From: a virus
Taxonomy: Duplodnaviria > Heunggongvirae > Uroviricota > Caudoviricetes
IMG/VR virus record: IMGVR_UViG_2939127364_000001
Length of the DNA: 64,000 nucleotides
Direction: 5' to 3' (one strand)
Part shown: positions 3,371 to 13,469 of the stretch, piece by piece
Position numbering within the stretch: position 1 is the stretch's first letter
Layout of the letters: each line of letters opens with the position of its first letter
Made by a program: the position numbers and the translations under genes
The notes under the pieces: generated by a model
What the model saw: the letters and a program-made list of their open reading frames with translations, nothing else
Database searches by the model: none
What the model was told of the DNA's origin: nothing

Positions 3371-3480
3371 ATAACTTGTCGTCTTAGACGCCCAGAAGCT
3401 CTACACTTTGAGCCTGTTAAATTGATTAAAAACTTATGTGTAAAATAGAACGCATTAGTCAGTAGCAAAGAGATGCAATA

Positions 3481-4248
3481 ATGGACGATTTATCGGTATA
3501 CGCGAGATCATTGGATAAGGCTAAATACTATGTTTACTGTCTCTATGATACAGAAGACAAGATGAAAAGACCGTTTTACATAGGAAAAGGCAAATCGACT
3601 CGTTGTCTCGATCACATCAAGTATCCCGATGACTCTCCCAAATCCATGCGGATCAAAGAACTTTTGGCTAATAAAAAATTAGGCATAGATATACTTCGTC
3701 ATGGTATGGATGAAACCACAGCCAAACTTGTTGAGGCGACATGCATCGACCTTATGGGGGTCGGAGAGCTTACGAATAAGGTACGAGGAAGTGGTTCCAT
3801 GATGGGCAGAATATCACTGGACGCCTACCATCACTTAGTGCTGCAAGAGGAAACTGAAATTGCTCCTGAGCACGCCGGTCTTGCCTTCCTGCTAAACAGC
3901 ACCTACAAGTCAGGAATGTCCGCTCTGGCATTATATGAAGCTACGCGTGGCGTATGGGCAAAGGTTCCAAGAGACGAGAATCTCAAATATGCCTACGCTA
4001 CATATGGTGGGCTGATAATGGAAGTTTATCAGATTGAATGCTGGGTCAAAGCCGGTTCTCAGCAGTACTTTACAAGGGATATAGCTCTTGGCCCCGACAC
4101 AAAACGTTATGAATTTGTTGGCAGAATAGCCGATGAGCATATTAGAAAACTGTATGTAGGCAAATTAATCAAGAAGCCACCAAGCTACGGTAGCCCTTTT
4201 GTGAAGGTTGGGGTGGTTAGGACTGAACATAGTGTTAGCGCGGCATAA
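3481..4248 (+). CDS. GIY-YIG domain nuclease (free-standing, possible homing endonuclease)
   Basis: 255 aa; N-terminus YVYCLYD-(10)-PFYIGKGKSTRCLDH matches the GIY...YIG...R signature; own transcription unit on the opposite strand to its neighbours. Confidence 0.6.
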   Translation: MDDLSVYARSLDKAKYYVYCLYDTEDKMKRPFYIGKGKSTRCLDHIKYPDDSPKSMRIKELLANKKLGIDILRHGMDETTAKLVEATCIDLMGVGELTNKVRGSGSMMGRISLDAYHHLVLQEETEIAPEHAGLAFLLNSTYKSGMSALALYEATRGVWAKVPRDENLKYAYATYGGLIMEVYQIECWVKAGSQQYFTRDIALGPDTKRYEFVGRIADEHIRKLYVGKLIKKPPSYGSPFVKVGVVRTEHSVSAA

Positions 4249-4264
4249 AGCTGACACTGTAGTT

Positions 4265-4302
4265 ATGCATTGGCGCAATGTACGCGCCAATGCATGATTT
4301 TT
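4265..4302 (+). terminator. Strong hairpin terminator at convergent junction
   Basis: 12-bp perfect stem atgcattggcgc / gcgccaatgcat with a 7-nt loop, followed by gattttt. Confidence 0.6.
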
Positions 4303-4660
4303 AACCTTTCTTCATCAACTCGCGTTTAATTTCATCGGTACGCATCGTGACATCGGCAGCAGTGATCGCCTCGTTCAGCTTCACGATGTCCTCGATTTCC
4401 TGCGGTGTCTTCTCCGCAAGATGGAAAATAGCAGCACGAATCACATCAGAGCGGGTGAATTTCTCAAAGCGAGGGATGAACTTCATCATCTCCAGCAGTT
4501 CGAAGTATTCGTCTTCCAGTGACATTGTGCGGCTTTTGATTTTCTCTTTGCCACGAGTCGGGCGTCCCTGTGGTCTGACTGGTTGGCGCAAAGGAGTTGT
4601 GTTCTTAGCCGGTGCATCAGGCTCTTTGCGCTTTGCTAGGTCTCCCATTCTCATGGACAT
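4301..4660 (-). CDS. Small partition partner protein (ParG/RHH-like centromere-binding candidate)
   Basis: 119 aa, basic N-terminus, immediately downstream of and overlapping parA by 1 nt. Confidence 0.45.
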   Translation of the reverse strand: MSMRMGDLAKRKEPDAPAKNTTPLRQPVRPQGRPTRGKEKIKSRTMSLEDEYFELLEMMKFIPRFEKFTRSDVIRAAIFHLAEKTPQEIEDIVKLNEAITAADVTMRTDEIKRELMKKG

Positions 4661-5325
4661 TATTCTTCCTCCAGACTCAAGATGTAATCTACAAACTCTT
4701 CGAACTCGGCTTCTGCCTTCTTATCGCGTTCAGCGCCAGTCATTTCAAAGATAGAACGACCTGCCTCTTCCGCATCGTCATAAACGTTACGGTTGTACAG
4801 GTTAACCGGCGCAGCCTCGATGCCGAAAGTTTCGACAATTTCCTTCGCGGCCAGAATACGTGATACCTGGGAAGGCAATGACGGACACTGGTTTATTACC
4901 GCGCGGATCTTAACTTTCTCGTTCACATTGCGAACGTTGTCGATAATCGGGTCGATATCACGCAGAGATTTCAAATCACGACGTTTAGGGCGCAGCGGGA
5001 TGATGATTACATCAGCCATAAGCATCGCCAGACGCTGAATTTCGGAGTCAAAGCCACCAGCATCTACCACTACAAACTCAGCTCTACCCTGAAGCGATTT
5101 TAGGTGCTTAATGATGTCATCCTGAACGTATGCAAAAGGAATCAGCTCAAGGTCTTCGTTCTGTCGACGGTCTTCACACCAGCTCGTTGTCGTGCGCTGA
5201 ATATCTATATCGGTAATATAAACCTTCTTCTTCTTTTTGACTTTCAGGCAAACGGCAATTTGCTGGGCAACGGTGGATTTGCCAGGCCCGCCCTTTGTGC
5301 CGCCAACCACAAAGATCTTGGTCAT
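4660..5325 (-). CDS. parA: ParA-family partition ATPase (small type Ib-like)
   Basis: 221 aa; deviant Walker A GGTKGGPGKST at the N-terminus; motif A 36 nt upstream. Confidence 0.75.
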   Translation of the reverse strand: MTKIFVVGGTKGGPGKSTVAQQIAVCLKVKKKKKVYITDIDIQRTTTSWCEDRRQNEDLELIPFAYVQDDIIKHLKSLQGRAEFVVVDAGGFDSEIQRLAMLMADVIIIPLRPKRRDLKSLRDIDPIIDNVRNVNEKVKIRAVINQCPSLPSQVSRILAAKEIVETFGIEAAPVNLYNRNVYDDAEEAGRSIFEMTGAERDKKAEAEFEEFVDYILSLEEE

Positions 5326-5360
5326 TGGAGAGTTCCCTTTGCGTATATAATTATCGTCTG

Positions 5361-5376
5361 AAACAACTTGTTTTCT
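5361..5376. promoter_or_regulatory. Motif A upstream of parA
   Basis: aaacaacttgttttct. Confidence 0.4.
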
Positions 5377-5604
5377 TATATGTGATATAGCCTAAATGCC
5401 TACGGCTGCGGTGTAAAGGTTAAATGGTAGGTTGTGATTAACAATTGGCAATCATAGCTTGTATTTGTCTGTTGAAAAAAGTAACAATGACCTCTATATT
5501 ACAAGTACGGTGATATGCCGTACACAATTTGATAATGCACACGTAATGGGCTATAGCCTTTTAAAGTAATTTTTGAGTCGAAAACTCAGTTTGAACAGAG
5601 GAGA

Positions 5605-5913
5605 TTGATGGCCTTCCTACATCACGGCCATCAGGAGGAATACATGTCAGCACTAAAAAAGCAGCGCATCGATTTGAGATTAACCGATGACGATAAAAGC
5701 ATCATCGAGGAAGCTGCCGCAATGTCTAACCAGAGCATTACTCAGTTTATGGTTAGCAGTGCATCTGAACGTGCCGTGAAAGTTATAGAGCAACACCGTA
5801 GACTAGTTCTGAATGAAGAATCCTGGAATCTGGTTATGGACGCTATAAGCAATCCTCCGGCACCGAACGACAAGCTGAAACGAGCTGCTGATCGTCTGAA
5901 AAGCATGGAGTAG
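5605..5913 (+). CDS. DUF1778-type RHH antitoxin (AtaR/TacA-like)
   Basis: About 90-102 aa, ...KKQRIDLRLTDDDKSIIEEAA..., directly upstream of and 8 nt from a GNAT toxin-like gene; true start may be the internal ATG near 5644. Confidence 0.6.
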   Translation: MMAFLHHGHQEEYMSALKKQRIDLRLTDDDKSIIEEAAAMSNQSITQFMVSSASERAVKVIEQHRRLVLNEESWNLVMDAISNPPAPNDKLKRAADRLKSME

Positions 5914-5920
5914 TTTACTC

Positions 5921-6442
5921 GTGAGCAATACAACGATAGAGATTTTCTCTGGAGAGAAAGATTATGATCTAAACGGTTTTGATTGCGGCGAAGAGTCACT
6001 AAACGCCTTTTTAGCCAACCACTTAAAAAGGCAGCATGAGGGAAAAATTCTTCGTGCTTATGTGCTTTGCACTCAAGAAGAAAGGCCAAAAGTGTTAGGA
6101 TATTACACTTTGTCAGGTAGTTGTTTTGAAAAGGAGTCCTTACCTTCAAGAAGCAAACAAAAGAAGGTTCCTTATCGGAATGTTCCAAGTGTTACTTTGG
6201 GTAGGCTGGCTTTGGACAAGTCCCTTCAAGGTCAAGGATTTGGCTCAATGCTTGTAACACATGCAATGCGCGTTGTGTACAATGCATCTCTTGCTGTAGG
6301 CATTCATGGACTTTTCGTTGAGGCGTTAAATGACAAAGCCAAGGCGTTTTATAAAAGTTTAGACTTTATCCAGCTGGTTGGTAACAACGAGCGTTCTTTG
6401 TTCTATCCTACAAAATCTATCGAAAAATTGTTCGAAGAATAA
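5921..6442 (+). CDS. GNAT-family acetyltransferase toxin (AtaT/TacT-like)
   Basis: 173 aa, GTG start; GNAT core LGRLALDKSLQGQGFGSMLV; classic antitoxin-then-toxin arrangement. Confidence 0.65.
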   Translation: MSNTTIEIFSGEKDYDLNGFDCGEESLNAFLANHLKRQHEGKILRAYVLCTQEERPKVLGYYTLSGSCFEKESLPSRSKQKKVPYRNVPSVTLGRLALDKSLQGQGFGSMLVTHAMRVVYNASLAVGIHGLFVEALNDKAKAFYKSLDFIQLVGNNERSLFYPTKSIEKLFEE

Positions 6443-6445
6443 TGT

Positions 6446-6467
6446 GTTCCCCTCATTTGAGGGGAAC
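6446..6467. terminator. Bidirectional hairpin between convergent toxin gene and lysis-like cassette
   Basis: gttcccctc-attt-gaggggaac, perfect 9-bp stem. Confidence 0.4.
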
Positions 6468-6610
6468 TTCGACATCACCAACCACAAACCCTCTCTCCCA
6501 TCGTATTGTGAAAAAGGATTTGGCGTTCGGTTTCTTCAGTCATTACATCATTATTGCTGATATAGATAGGCTCAGCCCCATCGCAGAACAACACGCTGGT
6601 GGTTTGTGGT

Positions 6611-6862
6611 TTAATGACGCACCCACTTATCATACAACTCACGATGAACGGCAGAAGCATCTTTCTGACGTATTTTACTGCTCGTCTCATTCACCACTTT
6701 CACTGTGTTTTGAAGTCGTTTTCTGTCTTCCTGTTTTGCCTTCTCTTCCATTGCTCGTCGCGCCGCATTCCCGCCCATCGTGTAAGCGCCGACAAAAACG
6801 AAAAGAACGGCAGCCAGCGTAATCAAAGCAACTTTTAGCTTTGTCATCAGGCTGCCTAGCAT
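6611..6862 (-). CDS. Small membrane protein with N-terminal TM segment and charged coiled-coil tail (spanin/holin-like candidate)
   Basis: 83 aa; hydrophobic LKVALITLAAVLFVFVGAYT followed by KAKQEDRKRLQ. Confidence 0.4.
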   Translation of the reverse strand: MLGSLMTKLKVALITLAAVLFVFVGAYTMGGNAARRAMEEKAKQEDRKRLQNTVKVVNETSSKIRQKDASAVHRELYDKWVRH

Positions 6863-6863
6863 A

Positions 6864-7583
6864 TTAGACCATCCCTTTCTGGTGTCTTCTTACCTGCGAC
6901 CAGGCAATGAATCCGGCCACAACAATAGTGGCAATGCCGAAGATGATGCGTACTGTATCCCCGCTAGAGATATGACCTTGTGCCTTATCCATAGCAGCGG
7001 AAACCTGCGGCATAACATCGGCCAGCTGCGCCAGACCAATACCTGCTGTAACAGTTGCGCCTGCGGTTTCTTTAGTTACAGGAACAGCCTTCACGGTTTT
7101 CACCGGCTTAACAACGCCAGCTCGACGCAGACCTTCCTCAATAACTTCTGCCGCATACCAGGTGTTCAGCGTTTTTAGCGGGCCTCGGCCATTCTCGTGG
7201 CGAATGATTGCCTCAACCAAAGGTCGAAGGATGTCGTAATCATGCAGATCGATGATCATGTCTGCGGTTACACCAACGGCTTTAGACACCTCATTAATGT
7301 AGGCGTCAGTATTGTTTTCATTCGGCGGTGCCCAGCGTTCAATAACTTCACGAATGGTATCGATACTTGTGCCGTCTTTTGCGCGACGTTTATCGTGGTA
7401 GGTAATTAGAGTCACCGCCAGCGCACGAATCCCCCAAACAGGGTCTTTAAACGTGCAAAAGCGCGGTTCGTCTGGATTCGCAACCAGACCTTGCCACGGT
7501 GATCCTTTATCAAGATTACCGGGGTTATTATTACGAATGCCTCTCGGGGTCTTCATCCTTGATCTCCTGTTATTGCAGTCCAC
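6864..7583 (-). CDS. Hypothetical protein with C-terminal TM anchor (possible cell-wall-active or lysis protein; family not recognised)
   Basis: 239 aa; N-terminal RGIRNNNPGNLDKGSPWQG motif, C-terminal hydrophobic IIFGIATIVVAGFIAW; likely true start at internal ATG ~7556. Confidence 0.45.
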   Translation of the reverse strand: MDCNNRRSRMKTPRGIRNNNPGNLDKGSPWQGLVANPDEPRFCTFKDPVWGIRALAVTLITYHDKRRAKDGTSIDTIREVIERWAPPNENNTDAYINEVSKAVGVTADMIIDLHDYDILRPLVEAIIRHENGRGPLKTLNTWYAAEVIEEGLRRAGVVKPVKTVKAVPVTKETAGATVTAGIGLAQLADVMPQVSAAMDKAQGHISSGDTVRIIFGIATIVVAGFIAWSQVRRHQKGMV

Positions 7584-7905
7584 TTTTTACGCCATACGCG
7601 GCTAACCCCAAAAGCAGTGCGGTAATAATGAACGACGTTATTTTAGAAACAATGCCGCCAAAGAACCCACTTGAGATGGAATCTAACCGGTTAAGGAGTT
7701 TGTCCAGATTGGAGTGTTGAATACTATGTTGCGCCGGGGTCATATCACCAAAGTAGGTTTTCAGCTGATCATTGACCTCCTGGCCAATTTCTTCACGTAG
7801 CTCTTTACCTAATTTGCCAACAACCTCCCGAGCAACGATCGCGGCAATACGCTCAACTTGCTCTGTTGTAACGCCCGCCATCTCGTTCGACATGTTTTCC
7901 TCCAT
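7570..7905 (-). CDS. Small protein with C-terminal TM segment (holin-like candidate)
   Basis: 111 aa; C-terminus KITSFIITALLLGLAAYGV. Confidence 0.45.
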   Translation of the reverse strand: MEENMSNEMAGVTTEQVERIAAIVAREVVGKLGKELREEIGQEVNDQLKTYFGDMTPAQHSIQHSNLDKLLNRLDSISSGFFGGIVSKITSFIITALLLGLAAYGVKSGLQ

Positions 7906-7956: not shown

Positions 7957-7976
7957 TAGGTAAGTACTTACACATG
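7957..7976. promoter_or_regulatory. Motif B, perfect palindrome GTAAGTACTTAC
   Basis: ggtaggtaagtacttacaca, overlapping the stop of the Gly-rich protein gene. Confidence 0.35.
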
Positions 7977-8822: not shown

Positions 8823-11800
8823 TTACATTTTTGCCTTCAGTTCGCGCACTTCCTCGCGCAGCTCTTTGACAGCCTCGACCAACATGCCGATAACGCCGTT
8901 GTAGTTAAGACGCAGACGAGGCTCTCCTGACTGATCGTTATGGTCAACCGTTACCAGTTCAGGCTGAACATTCTGGACGTCCTGAGCGATGAGGCCGCCA
9001 GACTGCTCATAACGGCCACAGACCTGAATCTCGTAGAGAACACCTTCGATCTGCTCCAGCTTGTCGAGCGCCCGCTCAATTTTGCGAATATTGCGCTTAC
9101 TACGGCGGTCGGAACGGATGTAAACGTCGTTAAAGCTACCATTCCCACCACAAACCCAAGTGCCGTCATTTTGCAAATAAGCATTAGCATCAGTGCCATT
9201 ATCAGTACGTGAGTTGTTTATCATGTAAAAGCCGAATTGGCTGTTACCTAAACCACCAACAAAAAATTTCCTATCAGCATGGTCTTGTCTTAACAATGCC
9301 TGAGCAGAACTAGTTGATACCTGATTAAGACCAAAAATAACGTTTTGATCTCGCATGCTAATCCAAGAACCTGAGTTGCTGTTAATAGAAAACCTGTTTG
9401 CATATACCCAGGAATTGGTTTTTATATCTCCAGTAACGTTGACAGGCTTATTGCTTTGAACACTCCCACTCGTAAAGCGTAAAACTTGGGTGTTATTGGC
9501 GTAAACATCAAGAATGCCATCTCCATTTTGTTTTAATCCGGTATCGCTATCACCCAGAACAATTGAGTTCCCACCAAGACCATTGACCACACCCAGCCCA
9601 AGACCACCGTCAACAACAGCACCATTGCCCATTGCTACTCTGCCATTAGTGAGATTTACATAAAATGGACGAAGCGAACCTATATCACCATTTTCTCCCT
9701 GGTCTTTTGCTGTCGGGATAAGGTAAAAATTATTTTCGGAACGGCGAAAAATCATCCCGTATGCCGCATCGTAAATGCGCAACCCATCCGTAGAGCGGAT
9801 CTTAAGCTGTCCGGACATCGTACCGCCGCTGTTTTTCATAAATAGCGCATCAATCCAGCCTGCAAATCCCGACTTATTAATGTATAAATTTCCATCATTT
9901 GCCAGAATGCCTCCACCTTGCGTCTTGAGGGGCTGACTCACATTTTGCAGCGTCAGCACACCAGTCATTGTTCCGCCAGAAATCGGTAACGCACCGACAT
10001 CAGCCGCTGTGGGTTTATGAGCAGTGGTATAGACCTGCGCCCAACCAGACCAATTCGCTGTCGAAGTATCACGGCGTGAACGAACATAAACCGGTGCATG
10101 AGCACCATTCGTTCCGCTCCAGCCAATAAGCAACTCGCCCTCACCAGCAGCACTCGCACCTTTCATGTGCAATACGTTGCCATACGTGGTCGGGTAGCTA
10201 TTGTTGTACGCCTCATACATTTGAATGCCAGCAGTGCCTTGAGTAGAGCCACTTAACGCCGTTACGGGCCCGCGTGATACCAATGTATTAATGTTGATAT
10301 CGCCTGAGCCATCAAACTTAACACCATTGATGTTTCTAGCAGTTTGCAACTTCGTAGCTGTTGAAGCATTACCGTTCAAGCTACCATTGATGCCGCCAGT
10401 AACATTGAGTCCATTACCAATGGACACAGCACCGCTGGTATTATTAATTGTAATCGGTCGCAAACCGTTCCATGAACCTAATGTGTCTCCTGATGCTGTT
10501 AGCATGAAATATGTGTTCGACCCATCATTACGGATAAAGAACCCAAAGCTACCGTAAGCAATGCGGAAACCATTTGCATATTTTGAAATGATCTCGCCAG
10601 AAGATGTCAAACCTCCAGATAATGTCCCACCGGTAAGAGGTAATGCACCAACGTCAGATGCTGTTGGTTTATTTTTCGTGTTATATACTCTTCGCCATCC
10701 TGGAGAATAATCTGTGCCATTAAATACATAGATAAACTCCGCATTAGTGAGAGCACCAGAGACACTCGTCGTTGTGGCCGTTGTTATACGGATCGTATAA
10801 TTGTTTGAGCTACTACCGTTATTAAATACCTCTATAACAGCTCCTGCCAATGGAATAACGCCACAACCAGTTTCACTATTTGGTATGGTTGCACTATTGG
10901 CATAGGCCCACGCACATCGAGCAATCCATGACCTTGTGGTAAACGCGCCGTTATTTTGCAATAACGTCACTAACTGTGCTGTTGTTATTGCTCCGCCATT
11001 ACTTCCTGTAGTTAACCAACCAGTAGGAGATGCCGGGCAACCTATATCGGCAGGCCCCAACGATATATTTCTTGTGCCATCAAACGCAATACCGTTGATG
11101 GTTCTTGCGGTTTGCAACTTCGTAGCAGTAGCCGCGTTGCCCGTTGTATTCTGATTACCAGTCGTATTAACACCTGGCAAATTAATATTCGCAGTACCAT
11201 CAAAGCTCACGCCGCCGATAGTTCTTGCCGTCTGAAGTTTTGTAGCAGTTGCAGCATTACCAGTGGTGTTCTGATTACCCGTAGTATTTACACCTGGAAG
11301 GTTGATATTTGCAGAACCGTCGAAACCAACTCCACCGATAGATCTTGCCGTCTGCAATTTCGTTGCTGTACTTGCATTACCATTTAATGTTCCGGTGATC
11401 CCACCAGTAACAGACAACGGACCTGAAACTGTTCCTCCGGTTGTTGGCAGTGCTCCAATATCTAACGGCGTCGGTTTCTGATGTGTGCTATACATCGTAT
11501 AAACAACACCATCGGTAACGCTGGAAGGCTTACTCGCTGAATATGTTGGCGATGTATAAATAGAAACTGTCGCATTTGCAGTACAATCCCAATGGATATT
11601 TACACGAGTCGCATAATTGCCAATCTCAACGTAAATATCATATGTATCGCCGGATGTGTTGATCCAGGCGAAATTCGTTAATCCGACAGCTGTACGCTTC
11701 CACAAAGCACCTGTAATCCCTTTGGGGTTTCCATTGCCTGCTCGTAGAACCAGTTCTGAAATACCTGCCTGATGTGGGGAGCCAACGTTAAACCCTGCGC

Positions 11801-13469
11801 CACCAATCAGGCTTATGTAAACCACGGAACTGGCTTGTGGCATGGTTACAGTTGCCAGCTTGAACCATCCGGCACCACCACTAAAAGACATTGTTATTGA
11901 ATTTAAAGTACCAATATCTTTCGGCGTTAATGTGATATCCGCAGTCAGTGCTTTACCGTTAACTTTTCGGTTAGATGGTACCCTGCCATTCGCATTGTCA
12001 TTGGCTGCTTTAACTGCCTTCGGTGTCGCGGCAAGCGTTTCAGATGTGCTGTTGGTTGCACTACTGAGCTGGACTATCCCCTTTTTCGTCGTGCTCGCAT
12101 CCTCAAGCGCCACGGCGGATGCAATATCCTCTGCCCGTTTTGCCGCTGTCTCAGCGCGCGTTGCTGCGGATTCTGCCGTACTTTTGCTCTGTGCTGCCGC
12201 CGTCGCACTGCCAGCAGCCTCTGTTGCCTTCGTGGATGCCGTCGTGGCGCTGCCCTTCGCTGCTGACGCCTGTCTGGTCGCCTCATCTTTTGAAGCAGAC
12301 GCAGATGATGCCGATGACGCTGCCGAACTGGCGGACGATGCCGCTGCCGTTTTTGAGGATTCTGCACGGGTTTCCGACGCTTTCGCGTTCGTTTCGGATG
12401 TCTTCGCTGCGGAAGCTGACCTCGCTGCTGCGCTGGCCTGTTCAGTGGCTTGGCCAGCCTTCGTTGTGGCTGTTGAAGCAGACGATGCGGCACTTTCTGC
12501 CGATTTTCCGGCGGCGGTGGCACTGGCTGAGGCCTGCCCGGCACTTGTTGACGCGGCACTGGCAGACGACGCAGCCGCTGTTTTTGAGCCTGCCGCAGCC
12601 GAGGCGCTCTGTCCCGCTGCCGTTTCAGAAGACCTGGCGTTCGTCTCGGACGTTTTTGCCGCCTTCGCGGAATTTCCTGCCGCCGTTGCCGAGGAAGCGG
12701 CATTACTGGCGCTCGAGGCTGCGCTCGTTTCTGATGATTTCGCTGCCTCTTTTGAGGCCGCCGCATCCCGGGCTGAGGTGGCAGCTTCTGACGCCTTCGT
12801 GGTCGCGGTGGATGCAGAAGTGGCTGCAGATTTTTGTGACGCTGCAGCATTCGTTTCAGATTTTTTCGCAGCAGTTGCACTCGCACTTGCGGCACTTTGT
12901 GAGGATGCCGCAGCGGATGCACTTTGAGACGCTTGAGAGGCTTTTTCTCCAGCAGTATTGGCGCTTTCTGCTGCTGCGGCAGCACTGGCCGCCGCCTCAC
13001 GAGCTTTGTCGCCAGCAGCATCAATCGCGTCAGTGTTATTTTTATACCACTCAACGTTTTCGTTGTGCTCGTTGACGATCTGCATTAGCGGCTTAACGGT
13101 CACTTCTGTACCGTCTTCACGCTCGATTGTCACCTCATCCAGCGCAGTCAACCAACTGCGTATGGACTTGGAATCAGCCGACATACGCGACATTAGCGCA
13201 GTAAAGCGCGCGCTAAACTGTGTTAAGTCGCCTTCATAGGTCGTAATGATTCGGCACGGAACCTCAGACTGAGTTTCGCCGGTATAAGGTTCTGAGAGAA
13301 CAATATTCGTATCGCTTATTACGCGCTTGATCTCGTACAGCTTATTGTCGGGGCCAATGACGATCATCCCCGGCAACACACCATTAGCTGTTACGTTCCA
13401 GGCTGTCCCTGCCCCAACCAGAGTATTGCTACCCTGTGTAAATGTGATAGTACCTTCCCTGTACCACAT
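8823..13469 (-). CDS. Long side tail fibre (Stf-like) with Ala/Ser-rich region, repeated fibre motifs and a C-terminal chaperone-like domain
   Basis: 1548 aa; long A/S/T-rich low-complexity segment; NASTATKLQTAR...FDG..NI.L repeated at least 4 times; C-terminal SDRRSKRNIRKIERALDKL resembles self-cleaving intramolecular chaperone domains. Confidence 0.8.
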   Translation of the reverse strand: MWYREGTITFTQGSNTLVGAGTAWNVTANGVLPGMIVIGPDNKLYEIKRVISDTNIVLSEPYTGETQSEVPCRIITTYEGDLTQFSARFTALMSRMSADSKSIRSWLTALDEVTIEREDGTEVTVKPLMQIVNEHNENVEWYKNNTDAIDAAGDKAREAAASAAAAAESANTAGEKASQASQSASAAASSQSAASASATAAKKSETNAAASQKSAATSASTATTKASEAATSARDAAASKEAAKSSETSAASSASNAASSATAAGNSAKAAKTSETNARSSETAAGQSASAAAGSKTAAASSASAASTSAGQASASATAAGKSAESAASSASTATTKAGQATEQASAAARSASAAKTSETNAKASETRAESSKTAAASSASSAASSASSASASKDEATRQASAAKGSATTASTKATEAAGSATAAAQSKSTAESAATRAETAAKRAEDIASAVALEDASTTKKGIVQLSSATNSTSETLAATPKAVKAANDNANGRVPSNRKVNGKALTADITLTPKDIGTLNSITMSFSGGAGWFKLATVTMPQASSVVYISLIGGAGFNVGSPHQAGISELVLRAGNGNPKGITGALWKRTAVGLTNFAWINTSGDTYDIYVEIGNYATRVNIHWDCTANATVSIYTSPTYSASKPSSVTDGVVYTMYSTHQKPTPLDIGALPTTGGTVSGPLSVTGGITGTLNGNASTATKLQTARSIGGVGFDGSANINLPGVNTTGNQNTTGNAATATKLQTARTIGGVSFDGTANINLPGVNTTGNQNTTGNAATATKLQTARTINGIAFDGTRNISLGPADIGCPASPTGWLTTGSNGGAITTAQLVTLLQNNGAFTTRSWIARCAWAYANSATIPNSETGCGVIPLAGAVIEVFNNGSSSNNYTIRITTATTTSVSGALTNAEFIYVFNGTDYSPGWRRVYNTKNKPTASDVGALPLTGGTLSGGLTSSGEIISKYANGFRIAYGSFGFFIRNDGSNTYFMLTASGDTLGSWNGLRPITINNTSGAVSIGNGLNVTGGINGSLNGNASTATKLQTARNINGVKFDGSGDININTLVSRGPVTALSGSTQGTAGIQMYEAYNNSYPTTYGNVLHMKGASAAGEGELLIGWSGTNGAHAPVYVRSRRDTSTANWSGWAQVYTTAHKPTAADVGALPISGGTMTGVLTLQNVSQPLKTQGGGILANDGNLYINKSGFAGWIDALFMKNSGGTMSGQLKIRSTDGLRIYDAAYGMIFRRSENNFYLIPTAKDQGENGDIGSLRPFYVNLTNGRVAMGNGAVVDGGLGLGVVNGLGGNSIVLGDSDTGLKQNGDGILDVYANNTQVLRFTSGSVQSNKPVNVTGDIKTNSWVYANRFSINSNSGSWISMRDQNVIFGLNQVSTSSAQALLRQDHADRKFFVGGLGNSQFGFYMINNSRTDNGTDANAYLQNDGTWVCGGNGSFNDVYIRSDRRSKRNIRKIERALDKLEQIEGVLYEIQVCGRYEQSGGLIAQDVQNVQPELVTVDHNDQSGEPRLRLNYNGVIGMLVEAVKELREEVRELKAKM
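10300..11450. repeat. Intragenic direct repeats (~120 bp units) encoding the tail fibre repeat motif
   Basis: Repeated ...ttgcaacttcgtagc... units near 10321, 11090, 11212 and 11332. Confidence 0.5.

Follow-up and report, generated by a model that had tools for sequence, protein, structure and literature searches.

The closest relatives of solved structure of the gene pair considered here are AtaR-AtaT of Escherichia coli O157:H7 and KacA-KacT of Klebsiella pneumoniae, whose toxins form a lineage placed in clade A of the GNAT toxins (PMC9177977). Clade A toxins acetylate a broad set of aminoacyl-tRNAs, Gly and hydrophobic (PMC7595197, PMC9177977), and mutagenesis of AtaT has assigned G108 to acetyl-CoA binding and Y144 to catalysis (PMC7595197). 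The KacAT complex has been crystallised on a 27-bp operator, AAATGTACGGTTATTAACCGTACATGA, a palindrome spanning the kacAT transcription start, and the operator bases are read by R8, D10 and R12 of KacA (PMC6698736). On low-copy elements, GmvAT is known to promote the vertical transmission of the plasmid pINV (PMC6519299), toxin-antitoxin systems occur in the shell genome of the SSU5 supergroup (Pfeifer et al., PMC7969092), and the pair carried by phage Cyrano consists of morons transcribed in LF82 lysogeny, 60-fold and 35-fold above the local background of the prophage (PMC9928086).

The window, which is the whole stretch of 64,000 nucleotides that was analysed, comes from an SSU5-like E. coli phage-plasmid. 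Over positions 5300-6700 it shares 99.8% nucleotide identity with Escherichia phage Cyrano (OV696614), and in the same interval Salmonella phage SSU5 matches at the parA end only (5300-5432). A reading made from the letters alone (the sequence-only reading) had placed a GNAT/DUF1778 type II toxin-antitoxin module, of the class that acetylates aminoacyl-tRNA, between lysis-like and partition genes, and both the location and the class are borne out. The ParA partition ATPase (4660-5325, minus strand; Pfam MipZ/AAA_31/CbiA; PHROG 164 ParA-like, E 4e-51) is divergent from the cassette, and a lysis cassette (6475-7905, minus strand), recognised by PHROG spanin and endolysin matches and by the Cyrano annotation, is convergent with it and comprises Rz1 (6475-6594), Rz (6611-6862), endolysin (6864-7583) and holin (7570-7905), all on the minus strand. 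Two adjacent plus-strand ORFs lie between them, antitoxin first, with family matches far beyond chance (Pfam 5.7e-26, PDB 1e-78). Profile searches, which had been proposed as a check, return PF08681 for the antitoxin and generic GNAT matches for the toxin. Together with structure-database searches they identify the pair as a two-gene type II operon of the AtaRT/KacAT lineage, with a clade A GNAT toxin and a TacA/DUF1778 RHH antitoxin.

The toxin gene (5921-6442, plus strand) has a GTG start and is predicted to encode a 173 aa GNAT aminoacyl-tRNA acetyltransferase orthologous to AtaT and KacT. Against the PDB the strongest matches are AtaT of E. coli O157 (6gts, E 1.4e-78) and KacT of K. pneumoniae (5zgn, E 4e-74), both strong and full-length, whereas other, more distant GNAT toxins score far lower (E 1e-20 and weaker), which places the protein in the AtaT/KacT lineage. 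The alignment to AtaT is gap-free over the full length with 119 of 172 residues identical (69%); the acetyl-CoA motif (Q/R-x-x-G-x-G/A) is found at 102-LQGQGFG-108, and G108 and Y144 fall in register. Of the AtaT residues that contact the tRNA acceptor stem or line the aminoacyl pocket, 16 of the 21 checked are identical, and the residues kept in the toxin include G108, Y144, Y85, R95, L27, F30, H34, R37, S76, S78, K79, K81, K82 and K165. As the other five are changed (A26S, R40E, N41G, R71K and K77R relative to AtaT), tRNA preference could differ in detail from that of AtaT. The GTG start, correctly called by the sequence-only reading as was the gene order, agrees with the AtaT alignment, which begins at residue 1, and is also found in the L004 allele; the gap between the antitoxin TAG stop (5911-5913) and this GTG is 7 nt, one less than had been counted.

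The antitoxin gene runs from 5644 to 5913 on the plus strand and encodes an 89 aa RHH protein of the TacA-DUF1778 family, orthologous to AtaR and KacA. It matches TacA1/DUF1778 (PF08681) over residues 8-86 (E 5.7e-26). Among PDB entries the matches are to KacA (E 6.6e-42, 80% identity) and AtaR (E 1.3e-40, 76%), and both align over the full length, residues 44-88 included. In comparison with KacA, the DNA-reading residues R8, D10 and R12 are kept, and by family match this closely spaced upstream partner of the toxin has an RHH domain at its N-terminus and a toxin-binding region at its C-terminus. A start at TTG 5605, as previously assigned, is simply where the mechanical ORF opens. Homology to AtaR and KacA begins with Met-Ser-Ala at ATG 5644, which is preceded by a strong Shine-Dalgarno sequence (AGGAGG, 5633-5638); the upstream ATG at 5608 is thrown out of frame by one extra base in the L004, L008 and L009 alleles (90-94%), and RefSeq annotates the antitoxin of these alleles at 270 nt. 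For these reasons the gene is taken to be 5644-5913. Starts at TTG 5605 and ATG 5608 were both considered and rejected, as AtaR and KacA lack the extension and the three diverged alleles do not have it in frame.

Upstream of the antitoxin, a sigma-70 promoter is predicted at 5472-5500 on the plus strand, with a -35 element TTGAAA (5472-5477), a 17-nt spacer and a -10 element TATATT (5495-5500); it is the best promoter-like site of the region (10/12 matches), and the 90% allele has no change in either hexamer. Four nucleotides after the -10 element begins the probable operator of the antitoxin or its complex with the toxin, GTACGGtgatatgCCGTAC (5505-5523), of the form GTACGG-N7-CCGTAC and lying over the predicted transcription start, at about 5507. 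Its half-sites and the 7-bp length of its spacer are the same as in the KacAT crystal operator, and it is the single match in the 64 kb window, where 0.07 would be expected with one mismatch allowed. Every related locus fetched has a single copy of the motif, in each case ahead of the antitoxin gene. Across these loci the half-sites are invariant and the spacers vary, being TGACATA in the chromosomal ataRT of O157, TAAATTG and TGTTATG in the 90-94% phage-plasmid alleles (L004, L008 and L009) and TATTTTT in a 68% IncF variant (L005), in which the layout TTGAAA-17-TATTAT-4 nt-operator keeps the same register. This constancy of half-sites with varying spacers provides strong evidence, at the level of sequence comparison, for autoregulation of the KacAT/AtaRT type through the predicted operator. 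Autoregulation had thus been anticipated correctly, but through another site: the palindrome named for it, TGAGTcgaaaACTCA, does exist at 5574-5588, yet it has arms of only 5 bp and is not the operator of the family. As the 318-nt intergenic region holds six such 5-bp-arm inverted repeats against 2.7 +/- 2.0 in shuffles, TGAGTcgaaaACTCA alone is at chance level. It was rejected as operator on this ground and because 74 nt separate it from the -10 element upstream, ataRT lacks it and the family operator is found elsewhere.

The predicted 5' leader (5524-5643, plus strand) is 120 nt long and holds the TGAGTcgaaaACTCA palindrome, an 8-bp perfect hairpin (5606-5613 / 5626-5633) that abuts the Shine-Dalgarno sequence, and AGGAGG itself. 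The 90% allele retains both the palindrome and the 8-bp hairpin. Operator and ATG are 120 nt apart here, 112 nt in the IncF variant and 26 nt in ataRT; it is conceivable, though of low probability, that this unusually long leader with its two kept hairpins adds a phage-specific control, and we assign no function to the hairpins. A structured RNA element finds no support, as shuffled sequences fold as well as the complete leader (z -0.48) and an Rfam search of it gives no match below E 0.03. At the other end of the cassette, a terminator scan finds a GC-rich hairpin of 9 bp (6446-6467) between the convergent stops of the toxin (6442) and Rz1 (6475); it is flagged for the minus strand only, the plus strand being without a following T-run, and it may terminate the toxin-antitoxin transcript.

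By homology to the AtaRT and KacAT systems, the toxin would act as a dimer that transfers acetyl groups from acetyl-CoA to the alpha-amine of charged tRNAs, bringing translation to a stop, and the antitoxin would block it by wrapping its C-terminal half around the toxin. In a complex of two toxins and four antitoxins, the N-terminal RHH domains would bind GTACGG-N7-CCGTAC over the transcription start, and repression of the operon would be set by the toxin:antitoxin ratio (conditional cooperativity). Toxicity, neutralisation and tRNA targets are carried over here from homologues at 69-80% identity, and we regard this molecular identity and mechanism as highly probable.

The cassette occupies a slot for variable cargo in the SSU5-like backbone (5433-6482), with similarity to SSU5 ending at 5432 and resuming at 6483. 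Since other elements carry other cargo at this position, the cassette, from its promoter to the 6446-6467 hairpin, exactly fills the slot. The same parA-Rz1 interval holds two unrelated hypothetical genes in SSU5, two other genes in PhiR41_1 and a single 185-aa gene in Klebsiella phage pJN2-26; its extent is 5134-6559 in L002, 3634-5038 in L006 and 3637-4463 in L007. Neither Pfam nor PADLOC returns a match for the occupants in SSU5, PhiR41_1 and pJN2-26, so there is no basis for naming the slot a defence hotspot. The 90% allele has its cassette at this same position, between flanks that are similarly mosaic (70-100% identity per 100-nt bin); the cassette does not look like a recent insertion and has diverged along with the backbone. 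A 14-nt direct repeat is also seen around the slot, with one copy in the parA upstream region (5380-5393, ATGTGATATAGCCT) and one in the TA leader (5546-5559, ATGGGCTATAGCCT), the second of which contains a perfect 10-bp palindrome, GGCTATAGCC (5549-5558); it could be due to chance, or it could be a partition or regulatory site.

Several neighbouring genes also deserve comment. To the left of parAB lies a second variable slot, occupied by a gene for a GIY-YIG protein of 255 aa (3481-4248, plus strand) that matches PADLOC PD-T4-3 (E 1.3e-23) and Pfam LEM-3_GIY-YIG; Cyrano is unrelated at window positions 3380-4302, and L004, L008 and PhiR41_1 have an ORF of equal length (768 nt) and orientation at this position. 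PD-T4-3 has already been reported in SSU5-like phage-plasmids of E. coli and Shigella (bioRxiv 10.1101/2025.09.12.675607). A 119-aa gene (4301-4660, minus strand) overlaps the stop codon of parA (ATGA) and is labelled 'RelE/ParE putative toxin' in Cyrano; neither Pfam nor the PDB gives a match for it, and the PHROG to which it belongs has no known function. Judged by its location, it may encode a small partition adaptor of the ParB/ParG type, and the toxin label therefore looks unsupported. Beyond the lysis genes, a tail-fibre ORF (8823-13469, minus strand) encodes 1548 aa with a long Ala/Ser-rich repeat region, and the tail fibre departs from that of Cyrano beyond about window position 7971, which indicates exchange of a host-range module. 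No phage tRNA genes that might bypass the toxin were found in the window.

The distribution of the cassette follows this backbone closely. It is present in 144 PLSDB plasmids, most of them non-mobilizable and, among the records listed, mainly from E. coli and 106-113 kb in size, as well as in 156 of 5426 complete E. coli genomes, where all copies at >=80% coverage lie on plasmids of about 106-112 kb with an SSU5-like backbone. It is consistently in the same slot beside parAB, and at >=90% identity no copy outside the SSU5-like backbone was found in the loci inspected; one match to a 163-kb 'conjugative' plasmid is bordered by the same phage-plasmid sequences and points to a cointegrate. Both genes are maintained by strong purifying selection: measured against the L004 allele, the antitoxin has a dN/dS of 0.04 and the toxin one of 0.07. 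The chromosomal relative ataRT (~66% DNA identity) is found in about 1626 places in the same 5426 genomes (~30%); on the O157:H7 chromosome (L003) it is flanked by livJ and panM, and at least 71 of the 5426 genomes have two copies of the family. A third lineage of the module, of about 68% DNA identity, is carried at 3012-3815 of L005 by the 129-kb E. coli plasmid pPEC1020-1, read as an IncF type, where it adjoins a RepB replication initiator gene and a decayed vapBC. Promoter and operator of this copy are arranged as in the window, its leader is of comparable length, and a hairpin, CTGACC...GGTCAG, immediately precedes the Shine-Dalgarno sequence.

As for what the module does for its carrier, the most likely role is post-segregational killing, which would stabilise the low-copy plasmid prophage, a view we hold with a little more than even confidence. 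The grounds for it are the low-copy plasmid prophage itself, the adjacency to parAB, expression in lysogeny and the precedents of GmvAT and Phd-Doc; the case for plasmid stabilisation is one of position and analogy. Of the features expected of an addiction module, a low-copy extrachromosomal location is found here, and expression in the carrier state is known from the Cyrano publication (PMC9928086). Against the need for such a device, SSU5 and many of its relatives manage without the module. Addiction could also be blunted by the host, as chromosomal AtaR, 76% identical to the antitoxin and present in ~30% of E. coli genomes, might cross-neutralise the toxin.

Of the other roles, the one that fares best has the same module protecting the lysogen from other phages by abortive infection or exclusion: an invading phage that shuts off the host would cause the labile antitoxin to be lost, and the toxin would be released. 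This is compatible with plasmid maintenance, and several observations speak for it: toxin-antitoxin systems are often defensive, SSU5-like phage-plasmids have been reported as carriers of defence systems, the neighbouring variable slot holds the PD-T4-3-like gene, and the module is expressed in lysogeny (PMC9928086, Cyrano). However, PADLOC returns no family at E <= 0.01 for either protein, and a defence assignment of the pair by its models was rejected accordingly; the other occupants of the slot match no defence model, the sequence indicates no phage-sensing component, and a literature search found no report of phage protection by a GNAT/DUF1778 pair. Maintenance is better supported than abortive infection, and defence as the selected role is unlikely, although the strongest of the alternatives.

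Less likely still is that the pair is a selfish addictive cassette hitch-hiking in a permissive slot with no net benefit to the phage-plasmid. The variability of the slot, with its unrelated cargo in relatives, and the lack of the module in SSU5 and most of the supergroup would suit such a passenger, but the 90% allele is in the same slot with divergence alongside the backbone, purifying selection is strong, and none was seen outside the SSU5-like backbone at >=90% identity in the loci inspected. At a similarly low level of probability, the module may do more than enforce addiction, either arming the lysogen against competing phages and rival phage-plasmids or having an effect that depends on cross-talk with ataRT. 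Cross-neutralisation or cross-repression with chromosomal ataRT could occur, and if such cross-talk is true, host genotype could decide whether the phage-plasmid is lost or even whether it becomes established; host genotype could matter in this way because the ataRT antitoxin is 76% identical and the operator half-sites are common to both. That the toxin is instead an ordinary housekeeping or resistance-type GNAT beside a small DNA-binding protein has next to no probability. The weak and generic GNAT or RimI-like matches of the protein in Pfam and NCBIfam (E about 1e-6) speak for this reading, but it is already contradicted by 69% identity to AtaT over the full length without gaps, the catalytic and tRNA-stem residues being preserved, by a partner 76-80% identical to AtaR and KacA, and by operator half-sites and spacing as in KacAT.

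The gene pair is a recognised and annotated member of a well-studied family, and its value as a discovery is little, the family being structurally and biochemically well characterised and the cassette already in public records. What is added here is the antitoxin start at 5644, the probable operator at 5505-5523 instead of the 5574-5588 palindrome, the parA-Rz1 interval as a variable cargo slot of SSU5-like phage-plasmids, and the question of ataRT cross-talk.

In comparing the locus to known systems, AtaR-AtaT of E. coli O157:H7 (PDB 6GTS, 6AJM, 7CHD) has the same gene order and similar sizes (88-89 and 173-175 aa), with Y144, G108 and the acceptor-stem contacts S76, S78, K79, K81 and K82 conserved here and GTACGG-N7-CCGTAC upstream of the antitoxin gene in both. 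It differs in being chromosomal (livJ/panM), in its ~66% DNA identity, in an operator 26 nt from the ATG rather than 120 nt, and in the five contact residues that are changed in the window toxin. KacA-KacT of K. pneumoniae (PDB 5ZGN, 5XUN) has the more similar antitoxin (80% identical, with R8, D10 and R12 common to both) and a slightly weaker toxin match than AtaT (E 4e-74 vs 1e-78); operator half-sites and spacer length are equal, the kacAT palindrome spans the transcription start and a conditional-cooperativity model is available, whereas host and replicon differ, as does the spacer sequence (TTATTAA against TGATATG). The nearest copy is CYRAN_26/27 of Cyrano (OV696614), in the same slot and orientation and annotated as 'putative antitoxin' and 'KacT acetyltransferase-type toxin', the same pair being labelled 'GNAT / DUF1778' in E. 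coli plasmids of about 110 kb; in Cyrano the antitoxin is annotated from the upstream ATG (window 5608) and the PD-T4-3-like gene is replaced by unrelated DNA. Phd-Doc, the classical addiction module of phage-plasmid P1, is of a protein family unrelated to the window pair and is a functional analogue only. GmvAT of Shigella pINV, the other functional analogue, is a GNAT/RHH pair like that of the window, with the difference that GmvT is a Gly-tRNA-specific toxin of clade D and the window toxin is assigned to clade A (PMC9177977).
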